From an uncultured bacterium (GTDB lineage: Bacteria > Margulisbacteria > WOR-1 > CAVSGV01), in assembly GCA_963699255.1 (NCBI GenBank), contig OY969425.1:180001-212000 (forward strand): DNA of 32,000 bases. The letters are read 5' to 3'. Both the position numbers and the translations under genes were made by a program. Positions 5,764-24,873 of this stretch are shown here, piece by piece. A model generated the notes under the pieces. It searched no databases. It had not been told where the DNA came from and saw only the letters and a list, made by a program, of their open reading frames with translations. The stretch's first letter is position 1. Each line of letters begins with the position of its first letter.

Positions 5764-5766
5764 TCC

Positions 5767-5805
5767 ATGCAAGTTTTTGGCTTCAAAACACGATAATATA
5801 TACGG
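5767..5805 (+). promoter_or_regulatory. sigma-28-like promoter motif, copy 4
   Basis: ATGCAAGTTT-ttggcttcaaaaca-CGATAATATATACGG, 49 nt upstream of the ATG at 5854. Confidence 0.55.
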
Positions 5806-8847: not shown

Positions 8848-8860
8848 AGCATGAAAAAGC

Positions 8861-8898
8861 ATGCAATTTTTGGCTGTTTTTTACGATATATATATAGG
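8861..8898 (+). promoter_or_regulatory. sigma-28-like promoter motif, copy 5
   Basis: ATGCAATTTT-tggctgtttttta-CGATATATATATAGG (13-nt spacer, G to T in the -35 block), 21 nt upstream of the ATG at 8919. Confidence 0.45.
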
Positions 8899-19385: not shown

Positions 19386-19414
19386 TTGCAATGTTATAAA
19401 TATAATCATATAAT
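19386..19414 (+). promoter_or_regulatory. sigma-70-type promoter TTGCAA-N17-TATAAT
   Basis: TTGCAA (19386-19391), a 17-nt spacer and TATAAT (19409-19414), 50 nt upstream of the ATG at 19465. Confidence 0.5.
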
Positions 19415-19464
19415 ATGCAACGAGGATCCAAAAAGGAATTTATCCTTATATAAGGAGGTTTTTT

Positions 19465-22017
19465 ATGTCAAAGAAAATGGTTTTTTGCCTCTGTATTCTC
19501 CTTTCCATCTTTTCCTTTTCCGTTTTTGCAGCAATACCGCGGACTATTTTTTATCAGGGGAAGCTATTGGATAAAGCAAGCAACCTTCCTGTCACCGAGA
19601 CCAAGGACATAACATTTACAATATACAGATCTTCTGACGGATCATCGCTTTGGTCACAGAAAATATCGATTACCCCGGATAGTAACGGGAATATCAGCCA
19701 GATCATAGGGCCTATCCCGGCCAGCGTTGATTTTAGCAGCGCATATGAGATCGGGCTCAATGTTGACGGGGAAGAGATGTCCGCGCGGCAGCAACTGACC
19801 GCGGCTCCTTATGCTTTAAGGGCGATGGTGGCGGATTCTCTCGCAAGCGGAGGGTCCAAAACAGCGGGGATGGGCGTTATGTCCGGCACAGCTGCAGACT
19901 ATGCGACATTGAGCGGCACTTCGTCGAACTGCGTCGGCGCTGCGAGGACATCCAACTACGCAGCATTGAGCGGAACTTCGTCCAGCTGTACCGGCTCTGT
20001 TTCTTATGCATCTTTGAGCGGAACTTCGTCCAGATGTACCGGCTCTGTTTCTTATGCATCTTTGAGCGGAACTTCGTCCAGATGTACCGGCTCTGTTTCT
20101 TATGCGATATTGAGCGGGACTGCATCCACATGTTCCGGGCCAGTTCCATATGCGACATTGAGCGGGACTGCGTCCAACTGTTCAGGAATTAGCGGAACCG
20201 CAAATTATATTTCAAAATTTACAGCCGCAAAAACACTTGGGAATTCGATCATTTATGATAATGGCACAAACGTGGGCATCGGGAAGACGGGTCCTGGGGC
20301 CAAACTGGATATAGGAGGCCTTGCGGAAAATGCTCAAGGGTTAAGGGTCATTAACACAAACAAGCAGGATATTTTCCTTGTTCCTCTATTAAGTGGCTGG
20401 GGATACAATCATCTGTCTAATGCTGGTGATGCCGGCATCTTTTATGAATCAACCGGATTAGTAATTGGTCCATGGGAAAATGCTTACAAGGGTATTCGTA
20501 TTGATTCATCCGGCAATGTGGGCATCGGGGCGCCGACTCCAGGGGCGAAGTTGGATGTTATTGGTTCTGTGAGGATTGCCGATGGGACTCAGGGCGCAAA
20601 CAGGGTCTTGATTTCGGACGCGAACGGCTTAGCCAGCTGGAAGGCTCTTTCCAGTATATCGGGAGCAGGGATGGGAGTTATGGCCGGGACAACTGCAGAC
20701 TATGCAGCATTGAGCGGATATTCTTCAATGTGTACAGGAACTGCTAAGACAGCCACCTATGCGCTATTGAGTGGAACCGCGTCGAATTGTATCGGACCTG
20801 TAAGGTATTCTGCTTTATCAGGGGTAGCCAGCGCATGTTCCGGTAATGCAAATACAGCAAACACAGCAAATACTGCAAATGTAGCCATCGCGGCAAAATA
20901 TTCTGTGATGAGCGCCGTTTCTTCAATGTGTGTGGGTACCGCGAATTTGACCTCAATTAAGGTCACCGCCGGGACACCGGGCGCGGGTAAGGTCCTGACC
21001 TCAGATCAATACGGCAATGCTACATGGCAGACCTCCAGCAAAGTATCAGGGATGGGTATCATGTCCGGCACATTCGCAGACTATGCAACCATGAGCGGGA
21101 TATCATCAAATTGTACAGGAACTGCTAAGACAGCCACATATTCTTTATTGAGTGGAACGGCGTCGAACTGTGTCGGCAGCGTGAATACAGCGAAATATGC
21201 TGCTTTATCGGGGGTAGCCAGTGTTTGTACAGGGGCTGTAAATATGGCAAATACAGCCAATATAGCAAAATATTCTGCAATGAGCGCAGTATCTTCGATG
21301 TGTGTGGGTACTGCGAACTTGAGCTCACTTCGGGTTACCGGAGGCACTCCGGGTGCGGGCAAGGTTTTGGTTTCGGATGCGAACGGATTAGCTACCTGGC
21401 AGACACCCGCCGGTGGCTCTCAATTGACGGTGAGGGGGAGAACATCCCGACTCGCTAAATTTGCCGATGGGCTTGATATGAACGCATCATCAAATACAAT
21501 TGAATACTCATCAATTTACGAACACAATGGCCTTGTTGGTATTGGATGTAATCCAGGAGTAATGACTTATACGGTATTAAATGTATTGGGCAGTTCAGAG
21601 TTAATTGGCGATGTTAGAGTTGATGGGCAGGTGACGATCACCGGAGGCGCTCCGGGTGCGGGCAAGGTCTTGATTTCGGATGCGAACGGATTAGCTACCT
21701 GGCAGCCCCCTATAGTAACCACTACAGCCACGGCTTCTGTAACAGCCATAACCAGTGCTTATACGGTTCTTCCTACAGATTCCATTATATTATGTACAGC
21801 TAATTACTTTACAATTACCCTTCCGTCAGCTGTCGGGCTCAAAGGGAAAATGTATACGTTTAAAAGGGTGTATGGCAATAATGCCCCCGGCCCGATATCG
21901 ATAGTAACTACCGGCCAACAAATGATAGACGGGGCGGGATCTTATAGTTTGAACAATAATAATTTTGTAGTAATAGTTTCGGATGGAGCTAATTGGCAAA
22001 TTATATCAAAGGGATAA
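19465..22017 (+). CDS. secreted tail-fibre-like repeat protein (putative surface adhesin), 850 aa
   Basis: Signal peptide MSKKMVFCLCILLSIFSFSVFA and SD AAGGAGG. It has 14 copies of a ~16-aa single-Cys repeat (YAxLSGTxSxCxG), GNVGIGxxxPGAKLDV motifs as in phage tail-fibre-like proteins, and four GxPGAGKVLxSDxNGxAxWQ motifs. Confidence 0.6.
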   Translation: MSKKMVFCLCILLSIFSFSVFAAIPRTIFYQGKLLDKASNLPVTETKDITFTIYRSSDGSSLWSQKISITPDSNGNISQIIGPIPASVDFSSAYEIGLNVDGEEMSARQQLTAAPYALRAMVADSLASGGSKTAGMGVMSGTAADYATLSGTSSNCVGAARTSNYAALSGTSSSCTGSVSYASLSGTSSRCTGSVSYASLSGTSSRCTGSVSYAILSGTASTCSGPVPYATLSGTASNCSGISGTANYISKFTAAKTLGNSIIYDNGTNVGIGKTGPGAKLDIGGLAENAQGLRVINTNKQDIFLVPLLSGWGYNHLSNAGDAGIFYESTGLVIGPWENAYKGIRIDSSGNVGIGAPTPGAKLDVIGSVRIADGTQGANRVLISDANGLASWKALSSISGAGMGVMAGTTADYAALSGYSSMCTGTAKTATYALLSGTASNCIGPVRYSALSGVASACSGNANTANTANTANVAIAAKYSVMSAVSSMCVGTANLTSIKVTAGTPGAGKVLTSDQYGNATWQTSSKVSGMGIMSGTFADYATMSGISSNCTGTAKTATYSLLSGTASNCVGSVNTAKYAALSGVASVCTGAVNMANTANIAKYSAMSAVSSMCVGTANLSSLRVTGGTPGAGKVLVSDANGLATWQTPAGGSQLTVRGRTSRLAKFADGLDMNASSNTIEYSSIYEHNGLVGIGCNPGVMTYTVLNVLGSSELIGDVRVDGQVTITGGAPGAGKVLISDANGLATWQPPIVTTTATASVTAITSAYTVLPTDSIILCTANYFTITLPSAVGLKGKMYTFKRVYGNNAPGPISIVTTGQQMIDGAGSYSLNNNNFVVIVSDGANWQIISKG
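19991..20105 (+). repeat. perfect 48-bp tandem repeat, ~2.4 copies, in-frame (SVSYASLSGTSSRCTG)
   Basis: CCGGCTCTGTTTCTTATGCATCTTTGAGCGGAACTTCGTCCAGATGTA occurs at 19991-20038 and again at 20039-20086. A third partial copy runs to 20105. Confidence 0.9.
20664..21404 (+). repeat. two ~370-bp paralogous coding blocks within the 850-aa protein
   Basis: Block 20664-21033 and block 21047-21404 both run from GMGxMxGTxADYAxxSG to GTPGAGKVLxSDxxGxATWQT. A shorter third block starts at ~19868. Confidence 0.75.
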
Positions 22018-22044: not shown

Positions 22045-22953
22045 TTGAAATTTAAGTTTCGGGGGTATTTTGTGCTCAAAAGGGCATTGATCATTCAGGT
22101 TGTTTTGCTGCTTTTTTCCCCCATCGCAAGCGTGTCAGGCTCTTTTGCTTTCACAATGAACAGCCAAAATTATGTTTTGCCGGCGGGTACAATTGGCGGC
22201 GTGGGCACACTTGAAACTTCCACTTCATTAAGCTATGAGCTTTACTCCAGTATCGGGCAGGTATCCCCGGTAGGGTCGTCGGATAGCGGTAGCTATTCGC
22301 TGCGTTCAGGCTATGTTTGCACGCTTTTTGATGATATCTATATTTACAATGTCAATATAGATGGCAGTACCGCTTCGTCGGCGACATCAATTTCAGATAA
22401 GCCTGTTATTTCGGCTGACATACTTGATGAGTGCTTAACACCGGGCTCAACAAGCGTTGAAGTGTATGTGGACGGCAAAAAATATCTTGTGGGACTTGTA
22501 AAGACTGGCCATAAAAAATATCATTTTTCGTGCAGCCCGGGAGCATTAATTAGCGGCGTGACACATGAGGTGGAGATCCGAGCCACAAACCTTGGAGGCT
22601 CAGCCGACTATTTCGGACTCAAGCAGCTTAAGCATCCCGGCATACTTTCCATCACAAGCAAGCCGAAGAACGTGCCGAATCCTTTCAGACCGAAGCACGG
22701 CGAAGGGACAACGATAATGTACGATCTTTCTTCTGATACCGGCACAAAACTGATCATTTACGACATAACAGGCAAAGCGGTGTGTCAGAAGTCCTTTGAT
22801 CCCGGAGATGAAGGCGGGAGATCAGGCCTGAACAGCGTCTTCTGGGACGGGAAAAACGACTTTGGGGAATATGTCGGAAATGGAGTGTACATATTTATTA
22901 TTACCTCTGGCAGCAAGATGCTTTCCAAGGGTCAAATGATGGTTGTGGACTAG
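22045..22953 (+). CDS. secreted protein with C-terminal FlgD-Ig-like / T9SS-CTD-like domain
   Basis: C-terminal block NVPNPFRPKHGEGTTIMYDLSSDTGTKLIIYDITGKAVCQKSF...NSVFWDGKNDFGEYVGNGVYIFIITSG. The likely true start is GTG 22072 (GGGGG 6 nt upstream), giving signal peptide MLKRALIIQVVLLLFSPIASVSGSFA. Confidence 0.65.
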   Translation: MKFKFRGYFVLKRALIIQVVLLLFSPIASVSGSFAFTMNSQNYVLPAGTIGGVGTLETSTSLSYELYSSIGQVSPVGSSDSGSYSLRSGYVCTLFDDIYIYNVNIDGSTASSATSISDKPVISADILDECLTPGSTSVEVYVDGKKYLVGLVKTGHKKYHFSCSPGALISGVTHEVEIRATNLGGSADYFGLKQLKHPGILSITSKPKNVPNPFRPKHGEGTTIMYDLSSDTGTKLIIYDITGKAVCQKSFDPGDEGGRSGLNSVFWDGKNDFGEYVGNGVYIFIITSGSKMLSKGQMMVVD

Positions 22954-23003: not shown

Positions 23004-23105
23004 TTGAAAAAATGAAAGTCCCCTATACTTTTACTAACTATCTCCTTTACGGCATGGAAGTATATACCATGCCTGTCATAAGGCAGTCGGCAAATTTCAA
23101 AATTC

Positions 23106-23143
23106 ATGCAAGTTTGATCCCCCATAACCCGATTATATAAGTG
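23106..23143 (+). promoter_or_regulatory. sigma-28-like promoter motif, copy 6
   Basis: ATGCAAGTTT-gatcccccataacc-CGATTATATAAGTG, 89 nt upstream of the ATG at 23232. A small CCCCG-GAAAG-CGGGG hairpin lies in the leader. Confidence 0.5.
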
Positions 23144-23231
23144 TAAGGCCCCGGAAAGCGGGGCAGCCATCTGCAAGAAAAGAACAAAGCTAGAGGTGGC
23201 AATGTTCTTTTCGGTTTTTAGGGGGGAGCAA

Positions 23232-24239
23232 ATGAGGAATACGGTTCTAAAGTTAACATTTTTAGCGGTATCATTGGTAATATTGATGATATCCGCATCC
23301 TTTGCTGATGACGGCTCAGTCAACGCACCCTCGGTAGACATAACAGAAGTAGGGATGGGAGCGCGCCCGATAGCGCTTGGGGGAGCATACACGGGCCTTG
23401 CTGATGACGCATCGGCCATATTCACGAATCCGGCAGGGCTTGCCAGGCAGAACAGCCTCTCTTTTGTAAGCATGAGTTCACAGATATTGAACACCGTAGA
23501 CTACAAGCTGATCGGATTTTCATATCCGACGCAATACGGTCATTTAGGGATCGGATATGTTGGGGCATCAACACCGGCAGGCTCACATATATATTATGTA
23601 GGGGGAGTAACAACCGAAGGCGGAGCAATGGATTATACGAACCAGATGTTCATCCTCTCATATGGTAAAGATATCAGCGAGCAAGTCGGGGTAGGGGCTA
23701 ACGTAAAGTTTCTTTCACAGGGGCTTTCGGGGAGCATAAGCAATGCACCGACCGCAAGCGGAATGGAGCTGGACCTTGGGGCGATGTATGCACCGACCAG
23801 CAGGTTGACCGTTGGAGCCACACTTCAAAATGTGGCTGGATCGCTTGATTGGTCCACCGGGGAGAAAGAAACGCTTCCCAGGCTGTTCAAGCTGGGATGT
23901 TCATATAAAGCTATTGAAAATGTGCTGGTCGCGCTGGACACGGACTTCGACCTGGACGGAGGAAGGGATATGGTGGCACACGGCGGAGCCGAATGGCAGG
24001 TAATACCACTTCTCGCGCTGAGGGCCGGGATCGACCAGAAAGCGGCGTCGATCGACGAGGGGACCACAGGGACATCAACGAATTATCTGCTTGGCATAGG
24101 CCTTACGCTGGACGGGTTCAGGTTCGATTACGCGTACAGGCAGGATCCTAATTTTTCTGAGCTATCAACGCATTATTTCTCGATCTGTTACACGGGCGGT
24201 CCTGAGGAGCCGGTAAAACAGGCATCGGAAATAATATAA
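23232..24239 (+). CDS. outer-membrane beta-barrel protein, PorV/PorQ-like (or FadL-like)
   Basis: Start moved to ATG 23232 (SD AGGGGGGAG). Signal peptide MRNTVLKLTFLAVSLVILMISASFA. The N-terminal block GARPIALGGAYTGLADDASAIFTNPAGLA is typical of the PorV/PorQ and FadL-type barrel families. The rest shows an alternating beta-strand pattern. Confidence 0.55.
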   Translation: MRNTVLKLTFLAVSLVILMISASFADDGSVNAPSVDITEVGMGARPIALGGAYTGLADDASAIFTNPAGLARQNSLSFVSMSSQILNTVDYKLIGFSYPTQYGHLGIGYVGASTPAGSHIYYVGGVTTEGGAMDYTNQMFILSYGKDISEQVGVGANVKFLSQGLSGSISNAPTASGMELDLGAMYAPTSRLTVGATLQNVAGSLDWSTGEKETLPRLFKLGCSYKAIENVLVALDTDFDLDGGRDMVAHGGAEWQVIPLLALRAGIDQKAASIDEGTTGTSTNYLLGIGLTLDGFRFDYAYRQDPNFSELSTHYFSICYTGGPEEPVKQASEII

Positions 24240-24274
24240 GGCCGATCGGTTACAAGAATGATTTGAGGTGTTTT

Positions 24275-24757
24275 ATGGTTAAAAAAATAGTTATTTATTT
24301 GAGTGTTTTGCTGCTTTTCTTTTCCGCTGTAAGCGCGGCAGGATCTTTCGCGTTCGCAACGGAGGACCAAAGTAATATCATGCCCGCGGGGGCCGTCGGC
24401 GGCTCAGCTGACCTTAACGGTTTAACACAGATTCAACATGCCGGACTTTTTTCGGTAACAAGCTGGGCAAAGAACGTGCCGAATCCATTCAGGCCAAGGC
24501 AAGGTGAAGGGACAACGATAATATATAACATTTCAGCTGATACCTGCACAAAACTGATCATTTATGACATAACCGGCAGAGCGATATGGCAGAAGTCTTT
24601 TGATCCCGGAGAGGAAGGCGGAAAAGCAGGCCAGAACAGTGTCTTCTGGGACGGGAAAAATGACTTTGGAGGATACGTTGGGAATGGAATATACATATAT
24701 ATGGTAATATCCGACAGCAAGATACTTCACCTTGGCCATATGGCGGTAATGAACTAG
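24275..24757 (+). CDS. small secreted FlgD-Ig-like / T9SS-CTD-like protein (short paralog of 22045-22953)
   Basis: ATG 24275 has GAGGTG 4 nt upstream. Signal peptide MVKKIVIYLSVLLLFFSAVSAAGSFA. It shares the same N-terminal and C-terminal segments as the 302-aa paralog but lacks the central ~140 aa. Confidence 0.65.
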   Translation: MVKKIVIYLSVLLLFFSAVSAAGSFAFATEDQSNIMPAGAVGGSADLNGLTQIQHAGLFSVTSWAKNVPNPFRPRQGEGTTIIYNISADTCTKLIIYDITGRAIWQKSFDPGEEGGKAGQNSVFWDGKNDFGGYVGNGIYIYMVISDSKILHLGHMAVMN

Positions 24758-24844: not shown

Positions 24845-24873
24845 TTGACAACTTTTTGAGTTGTCTATATAAT
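24845..24873 (+). promoter_or_regulatory. consensus sigma-70 promoter of groESL (TTGACA-N17-TATAAT)
   Basis: TTGACA at 24845-24850, a 17-nt spacer and TATAAT at 24868-24873. Confidence 0.75.

Follow-up and report, generated by a model that had tools for sequence, protein, structure and literature searches.

Does a short motif that stands both in front of an outer-membrane barrel gene and in a cluster of ORFan genes some 13 kb away connect these two loci, or does it belong to something larger? The question is raised by a 32,000-nt stretch of an uncultured Margulisbacteria genome (hereafter the window; positions 180001-212000 of the 1.77-Mb genome, which is one contig and has a G+C content of 47.5%), in which a sixth copy of a motif known from the 1-10 kb region lies upstream of a gene for a PorV-like barrel. 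The Margulisbacteria are an uncultivated sister lineage of the Cyanobacteria and, to our knowledge, nothing has been established experimentally about their gene regulation; a conserved promoter for an alternative sigma factor would make a regulon readable from their genomes. We consider it likely that the motif is a promoter of the FliA/sigma-28 family, that the barrel gene it drives is part of a regulon spread over the whole genome, and that the leader RNA between promoter and gene supplies a second layer of control. The sixth promoter copy taken alone is what one would expect of another regulon member. The leader is a short, conserved RNA of switch-like architecture that has no catalogued relative.

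The 38-nt string ATGCAAGTTT-gatcccccataacc-CGATTATATAAGTG is found exactly at 23106-23143 of the plus strand. Its upstream element, CATGCAAGTTT, has five exact copies in the window (at 1176, 1769, 2914, 5766 and 23105) and one copy with a single mismatch (8860), all of them on the plus strand, as compared with 0.8 copies expected from shuffled sequences, none of which (0/100) reached six. Alignment of the six copies places the five upstream ones at 1176-1214, 1769-1807, 2914-2952, 5766-5804 and 8860-8897, and leaves two invariant blocks, CATGCAA(G/T)TTT and an A/T-rich block that begins with CGA(T/A), the CGA core being present in every copy; the spacers between these blocks and the sequences that flank them are unrelated. 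The first-pass annotation had described the barrel copy as having the same blocks and the same 14-nt gap as the copies of the cluster, and this is confirmed: the distance from ATGCAAGTTT to CGA(T/A) is 14 nt at 23105 and in every upstream copy but the one at 8860 (five copies in the window); it is 13 nt at 8860, where the sequence (CATGCAATTTT) also bears a G-to-T change.

The arrangement extends to the genome as a whole and to the bacterial class. Of the 16 ATGCAAGTTT sites in the genome, 14 have the CGA(T/A)-A/T-rich block at the fixed gap, and a relaxed pattern retrieves 15 TGCAAGTT sites plus three or four TGCAATTT sites (15-19 co-oriented sites overall); all 15 of the TGCAAGTT sites are co-oriented with a Shine-Dalgarno (SD) sequence and an open reading frame (ORF) located 50-150 nt downstream. 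In a scan of 121 genomes of the phylum, 47 of them from the same class, the pattern TGCAAGTT-N14-16-CGAT was matched 12 times in the source genome and 5-22 times in each of the 47 same-class genomes, as against 0-2 matches for the spacing control TGCAAGTT-N12-14-CGAT and 0-2 for the reversed control. Enrichment that is confined to the right spacing and extends through the class is the behavior of a bipartite promoter and implies that the motif is ancient. The suggestion that the motif is a promoter is thus borne out by its fixed bipartite architecture, by the SD sequences and ORFs that follow it in the same orientation and by its spacing-specific enrichment.

We refer to these sites as class II promoters, since the genome also carries a second and larger sigma-28-like class, TGAAATT(T/C)-N13-ACGATA(T/A)AT, with about 50 co-oriented sites (e.g., G000:C1:52566, 1051879 and 3414). 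The two classes, whose words are TGAAATTT for class I and TGCAAGTT for class II, differ at two positions of the -35 element. Sites of the larger class precede rpoD, a gene for a sigma-54 activator and another PorV-like paralog (862 aa), and none was seen in the 19-25 kb part of the window. The genes behind class II sites mostly lack a known family. One site heads fliK-flgE-flgG, the sole flagellar unit of the set, another lies in front of a small ORF located upstream of rpoN and a third precedes the gene for a 2,620-aa protein, which ends just before the window begins. The proposal that the motif ties the barrel gene to the 1-10 kb cluster can therefore be kept in part. Co-regulation of the two is likely, given the promoter hallmarks of the motif and its conservation at orthologs; it is not a specific wire, because at least 15 units across the genome are headed by the same promoter class, which amounts to membership in one regulon and not to a bridge between two loci. 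By the criteria available from sequence, the sixth copy is a genuine, conserved sigma-28-like promoter that marks the barrel gene as a member of that regulon.

Conservation at orthologous barrel genes is the observation on which the proposal had been staked, in that absence of the motif in relatives was to count against it. The motif is kept in relatives whose barrel proteins are 35-84% identical to that of the window. In three of them (L111, 84%; L114, 67%; and L112, 72%, with TACAAGTT) it is accompanied by the whole of the leader described below, 5' hairpin included; in relative G001, which has two barrel loci (L024 and L025, 58-61% protein identity), motif and leader are both retained; and at 35% identity the motif is still found at one barrel copy of a Margulisiibacteriota metagenome-assembled genome (MAG; L027). 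At the other copy in that MAG, and in genome G006, the barrel gene directly follows a gene for a protein with a C-terminal sorting domain (CTD); in the case of the MAG, this operon is headed by the motif. The best short-form matches at the class level (L062-L065, L080 and L081) all have the motif 67-284 nt upstream, and lower-scoring, long-form paralogs at that level are without it. Between the two blocks, all of the sequence changes from ortholog to ortholog while the blocks persist.

Which sigma factor might read such a promoter can be approached through the known sigma-28 elements, which are TAAAGTTT in E. coli and TCTAAAG in the fliC promoter of Pseudomonas aeruginosa for the -35 region, and GCCGATAA for the -10 region (PMC12784957). 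The -35-like element of the barrel promoter, an exact match to CATGCAAGTTT at 23105-23115 that is kept upstream of barrel orthologs, shares AAGTTT with TAAAGTTT; its -10-like element, CCCGATTA (23128-23135), agrees with GCCGATAA at six of eight positions, CGAT(A/T)A included, and is followed by a conserved start region, TATAAGTG, that ends at 23143. The register of the P. aeruginosa fliC promoter places the predicted start of transcription at about 23143. The genome has housekeeping promoters of canonical form in the same neighborhood, a perfect TTGACA-17-TATAAT before groES (24845-24873) and TTGCAA-17-TATAAT before an 850-aa fiber-like gene (19387-19415), which sets the motif apart as a separate promoter class; with sigma-70-type promoters at these two places, the barrel gene may also receive read-through from the upstream operon.

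Five proteins of the sigma-70 family are encoded in the genome, and FliA/WhiG is the best family for two of them. A 245-aa protein aligns over its full length with the FliA/WhiG model TIGR02479 (135 bits), and its gene (genome positions 88369-89106) lies within a long flagellar operon, where it adjoins flgI and flgC; the other factor, of 194 aa and encoded downstream of flhA (265709-266290, minus strand), resembles FliA in regions 2 and 4 (77 bits). Neither gene is preceded by a promoter of its own of either class. The presence of two FliA-like sigma factors and two promoter classes suggests a one-to-one pairing, and from the likeness of the elements we infer that the motif depends on a factor of the FliA/sigma-28 family. 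An attempt to assign one of the two factors to the motif by phylogenetic profiling failed; both are conserved throughout the class, which makes assignment by co-occurrence impossible. The parallel with the class 3 promoters read by sigma-28 (FliA, SigD, WhiG) lies in the bipartite form, in the CGAT(A/T)A core and AAGTTT, and in the location of the FliA-family genes in flagellar operons; the present system differs from them in having a regulon made up mostly of family-less proteins plus a PorV-like barrel, two promoter classes and two sigma factors. The genome encodes a set of basal-body and export proteins (FlhA, FliK, FlgE/F/G-like proteins, FlgI and FlgC) together with RpoN. In Chlamydia, a FliA-family sigma factor has been retained by a non-flagellate organism for late developmental genes such as hctB. 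The Margulisbacteria genome resembles the chlamydial case in that a factor and a promoter of the sigma-28 type would serve genes other than those for filament and motility, and differs from it in that the basal body and export gate have been kept (FlhA, FliK, rod and P ring) and in the cargo of the regulon.

What distinguishes the barrel gene and some of its relatives within the regulon is the RNA that precedes the coding sequence. A hairpin had been noticed in it at about 23150-23164; it is real, occupies 23148-23164 and opens a conserved leader that continues beyond it to a second hairpin. Its arms, GCCCCG (23148-23153) and CGGGGC (23159-23164), form six G-C pairs around a GAAAG loop, beginning at about +6 of the predicted transcript, and compensatory changes preserve it in relatives (GCCUUG/CAAGGC in L114, GGCC/GGCC in L062 and GGCCC/GGGCC in L063). 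It is followed by a box, GCCATCTGCAA / GCCAUCUGCAA (23166-23176), that hardly varies among 21 leaders that follow class II promoters in relatives, and then by a terminator-like hairpin (23177-23219) with a 5' arm at 23177-23186, a 3' arm at 23203-23212 and a U-rich tract that extends to 23219. The loop of this hairpin contains an antibox, AGGTGGC (23194-23200), complementary to the box; other leaders have GCAGAUGG(C) in its place. In relatives, the hairpin and its U-run occur at a variable distance after the box and just before the ribosome-binding site (RBS), with the antibox in the loop or at the junction of loop and stem. The SD sequence of the barrel gene, GGGGGGAG, lies at 23221-23228, as read from the sequence and from the predicted fold, and the ATG follows at 23232.

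A class II promoter followed within 8-38 nt by CATCTGC is found at 18 sites in 11 of 65 genomes of the class and at none in the reversed control. Pairing between box and antibox was scored by script; MAFFT alignments of distant leaders (A2, A3) were out of structural register. The best box:antibox runs of the 21 leaders sum to 142, versus 114.3 +/- 4.0 after shuffling, and 0 of 2000 shuffles reach 142. The distance from the end of the antibox to the U-run is 4-18 nt in 13-14 of the 21 leaders, and three leaders (L026b, L100 and L096), which come from two genomes, have the compensatory double change GUC/GAC. A count of structural pairs, limited to five close leaders (alignment A5), gives 98.8% of cells paired versus 46-60% when the pairing partners are slid. 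Searches of Rfam 15 returned nothing relevant for the window leader (to an E value of 10) or for 16 related loci (to an E value of 1). A strict box-antibox pattern that does not depend on the promoter has seven sites, four in genuine leaders and three in coding sequence, from which it appears that the element is confined to the class, where it is sporadic. The genes behind such leaders encode PorV-family barrels, proteins with a sorting domain of type A of the type IX secretion system (T9SS) and other proteins with signal peptides. We conclude that the conserved leader, composed of 5' hairpin, box and antibox-bearing terminator-like hairpin, is a new element with no catalogued relative in Rfam. 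A candidate site of the CsrA type in a GGA-containing hairpin loop was rejected, as the loop sequence is not conserved. Three other leaders (L092:1470-1512, minus strand; L099:1559-1705; and L099:2867-3010) have the box with neither antibox nor terminator and share another conserved segment, ACCTCGACAGGC...GGTCGATCGGGGCAAACC, which has no match in Rfam; a c-di-GMP-I riboswitch, considered for the GGGGCAAACC-containing leaders of L092 and L099, has no Rfam support.

The folding of the leader suggests how it might act. The window leader folds well below its shuffled versions (z = -3.1) and has two states of nearly equal predicted energy, one in which box and antibox are paired (-33.0 kcal/mol) and one with the terminator-like hairpin (-32.6 kcal/mol). 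When box and antibox are paired, the U-rich 3' arm is predicted to pair with the SD sequence. The antibox abuts the 3' arm, and from this geometry the two helices, and with them the two modeled folds, are probably mutually exclusive; across the leader family the minimum-energy fold is sometimes the one and sometimes the other. The leader has the features by which attenuators are recognized, an intrinsic-terminator-like hairpin with a U-tract before the RBS and a competing alternative helix. In the mechanism we propose, RNA polymerase with a FliA-like sigma factor would start near 23143 and produce a transcript made up of a 90-nt leader, the PorV-like barrel gene and probably a small gene for a CTD protein. 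The barrel gene would thereby be expressed as part of a "late" regulon of at least 15 units, together with the ORFan cluster at 1-10 kb, the gene for the 2,620-aa protein and fliK-flgE-flgG, and the leader would act as a second layer of control for the barrel gene and related cargo genes within the regulon. The box GCCAUCUGCAA would pair with the antibox, which the terminator-like hairpin just before the RBS carries in its loop, and, with two folds about equally stable and probably exclusive, we infer that a trans-acting factor bound to the box might determine whether RNA polymerase or the ribosome goes on into the gene.

Riboswitch expression platforms and the attenuators governed by ANTAR proteins, PyrR or the T-box likewise place a terminator-like hairpin between promoter and RBS and oppose it to an alternative helix of similar stability. 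The present leader departs from known terminator/antiterminator leaders in that its competing helix pairs with the loop of the terminator and not with an arm of its stem, and from known attenuators in that neither an aptamer-like domain nor a known motif for protein binding was recognized in it and no Rfam family covers it. The only other such hairpin in the genome is a terminator with a 16-bp stem (-26 kcal/mol; G000:C1:1259591, minus strand; loci L018 and L028). It lies directly after a second copy of the barrel gene and before fiber genes, and its loop contains a perfect complement of the box (GCAGAUGGC / GCAGATGGC), so that the box could also act there.

Several observations weigh against this explanation as a whole, and they touch both of its layers. 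The -35 half, GCAAGTTT, contains AAGTTT and lacks the initial TA of the canonical element (GCAA in place of TAAA), and the distance from AAG to the -10 octamer is 1 nt longer than in the P. aeruginosa fliC promoter (15 versus 14 nt; PMC12784957). Both FliA-like sigma factors score under the NCBIfam cut-off for FliA/WhiG (189.6 bits), both have counterparts, 56-73% identical, in nearly every genome of the class, and the existence of the larger sigma-28-like promoter class gives them another possible target. A six-frame search of the genome gave no match to Flagellin_N or Flagellin_C (the C domain to an E value of 1), and without a detectable flagellin the regulon does not qualify as flagellar class 3 in the classical sense. 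For the leader, covariation within the close lineage is slight (one compensatory pair and three wobble changes in five sequences), and the terminator stem of the window itself is A/U-rich and weak. The sigma factor scores also lend something to a reading in which the motif is an RpoD promoter, or an operator that overlaps one and binds a regulatory protein, with ATGCAA as its -35 element, GATTAT or TATATA as its -10 element and an unusually long spacer: ATGCAA resembles the TTGCAA of the neighboring fiber-gene promoter, and the downstream half of the motif is A/T-rich and TATA-like. The spacer to a TATAAT-like hexamer would, however, be 19-23 nt, in contrast to 17 nt in the canonical promoters of this genome, the invariant CGA and AAGTTT are hallmark positions of sigma-28 and not of sigma-70, and the enrichment depends strictly on spacing, all of which makes the RpoD reading unlikely. 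A more serious rival, which we regard as less likely than not, concerns the leader: the 5' hairpin might only stabilize the mRNA, and the downstream hairpin might control translation by masking or freeing the SD sequence or have no regulatory role. The predicted pairing of the 3' arm with GGGGGGAG in the minimum-energy fold of the window leader fits such a role, and an A/U-rich stem may terminate poorly; yet the equivalent hairpins of other lineages (L027, L096, L091 and L107) are G/C-rich and followed by U-runs, in the manner of intrinsic terminators, the box is conserved far beyond what pairing would need, and a terminator with a perfect antibox follows the second barrel copy as well.

That second copy bears on a further rival, according to which the likeness between the sequence upstream of the barrel gene and the copies at 1-9 kb reflects descent from duplicated DNA (as the end of a repeated cassette) with no shared regulation. 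The barrel cassette is in fact duplicated: 1144 bp comprising promoter, leader and barrel gene (23100-24243, plus strand) are 100% identical by blastn to positions 1260765-1259622 of the minus strand of the genome, 1.06 Mb away, in flanks that are only about 80% identical; the perfect identity extends from 6 nt upstream of the motif to 4 nt past the stop codon. The copies of the motif within the window, on the other hand, have only the two short blocks in common, no homologous flanks or target-site duplications were seen, the blocks persist at orthologs down to 35% protein identity while the sequence between them changes, and the same words recur 5-22 times in each related genome. Descent by duplication is therefore a very improbable explanation of the motif, and a FliA/sigma-28-family promoter is to be preferred. 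The cassette has a parallel in relative G001, where two barrel cassettes 12 kb apart (L024 and L025, 3846-5269) are perfectly identical over 1,424 bp between diverged flanks, the block starting 17 nt before the -35 element and reaching precisely to the following promoter of this class. Identical cassettes with diverged flanks in two genomes imply that promoter, leader and gene have been homogenized as one unit, independently in the two cases and presumably by gene conversion. In the source genome, both cassette loci adjoin paralogs of the Cys-repeat fiber-like protein encoded at 19465-22017.

The product of the gene that this promoter and leader serve (23232-24239, plus strand) is 335 aa long, has a signal peptide and belongs to the PorV/PorQ family of outer-membrane barrels. 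It passes the family model NF033709 (102.6 bits for a cut-off of 90, residues 35-320) and falls far under the equivalog cut-offs for PorV (NF033710; 30 versus 250 bits), PorQ (47 versus 220 bits) and PorV2; its matches in Pfam, all weak, are to the FadL superfamily, and phmmer found no match among the sequences of the PDB. An AlphaFold2 model built with 60 homologs (pLDDT 87.7, pTM 0.82) has as its top Foldseek match 8gl6_F (E 1.4e-11, TM 0.67/0.62), with FadL, TodX and TbuX next. PDB entry 8GL6 is a type IX secretion complex bound to the substrate RemA-CTD, and its chain F is presumably PorV, as judged from chain length. The relatives of the barrel come from MAGs of Candidatus Margulisiibacteriota. 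Nothing contradicts the description of this gene as the only one for an outer-membrane barrel in the window, and the genome as a whole holds 13 PorV-like paralogs, among which the class II promoter is found only at the two 100% identical copies. Many of the paralogs are 550-650 aa long (G000:C1:227130, 818227, 522322, 281036 and 1342056), and longer PorV-like forms are fusions of a barrel with S-layer homology (SLH) domains (database homologs P0044-P0101), which suggests tethers between outer membrane and wall built on a PorV-like barrel. In passing the family hidden Markov model, in its FadL-like fold and in having neighbors with T9SS type A CTDs, the window protein resembles the T9SS PorV of Flavobacterium johnsoniae (8GL6 chain F; NF033709/NF033710); it differs from it in its non-Bacteroidota host, in being one of 13 paralogs, several of them fused to SLH domains, and in the lack of a PorU.

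The neighbors in question lie on both sides of the barrel gene and on the same strand. Upstream, 22045-22953 encodes a paralog whose C-terminal domain is of the T9SS type A sorting/FlgD-Ig kind (TIGR04183, 28.1 bits for a cut-off of 23; FlgD_ig); downstream, 24275-24757 encodes a small paralog with the same domain (TIGR04183/FlgD_ig), whose gene matches the 3' part of the upstream one with about 79-80% DNA identity and, with a gap of 35 nt, is probably co-transcribed with the barrel gene. The N-terminal part of the upstream protein (22045-22330) has a weak match to the PamT model of pili of the candidate phyla radiation type (E 1e-5, 25 bits, cut-off 240). The combination of PorV and CTD genes is also found in relatives. 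No PorU sortase was detected in the genome, the matches to NF033707 covering C-terminal sorting domains only, and matches to SprA are weak (at most 38 bits) and fall in half-size proteins of about 1,130 aa. The first-pass annotation had seen in the shared motif a hint of how the ORFan products might reach or interact with the cell surface, and this is not supported: the immediate partners of the barrel are its own CTD-bearing neighbors, and its position within a module of PorV and CTD cargo favors the handling of these signal-peptide proteins over that of the signal-less ORFans. If the latter are exported at all, we would speculate that the flagellar-type export gate is the more plausible route.

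These elements can be combined into a wider scheme, which we offer tentatively and think less likely than not. The leader would be an uncatalogued switch RNA of the Margulisbacteria, through which a trans-acting factor gates genes for PorV-like barrels and CTD cargo, the box might act again after the second barrel copy, and a two-tier circuit would tie a flagellar basal body that lacks its filament to a minimal type-IX-like system for surface proteins, with two FliA-like sigma factors matched to two promoter classes. The interest of the locus lies in the association of a PorV-like carrier barrel, in one regulon, with many proteins of no known family and with basal-body genes, in an organism without a detectable flagellin. 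If the leader is a true switch, it represents a new family of attenuators and suggests that, in a minimal type-IX-like system outside the Bacteroidota, the display of surface proteins is under the control of a regulator. Within the ORFan cluster, between two of the promoter copies, the window also contains a gene (2511-2870) for a protein of the 23S rRNA-intervening-sequence type, a four-helix bundle.

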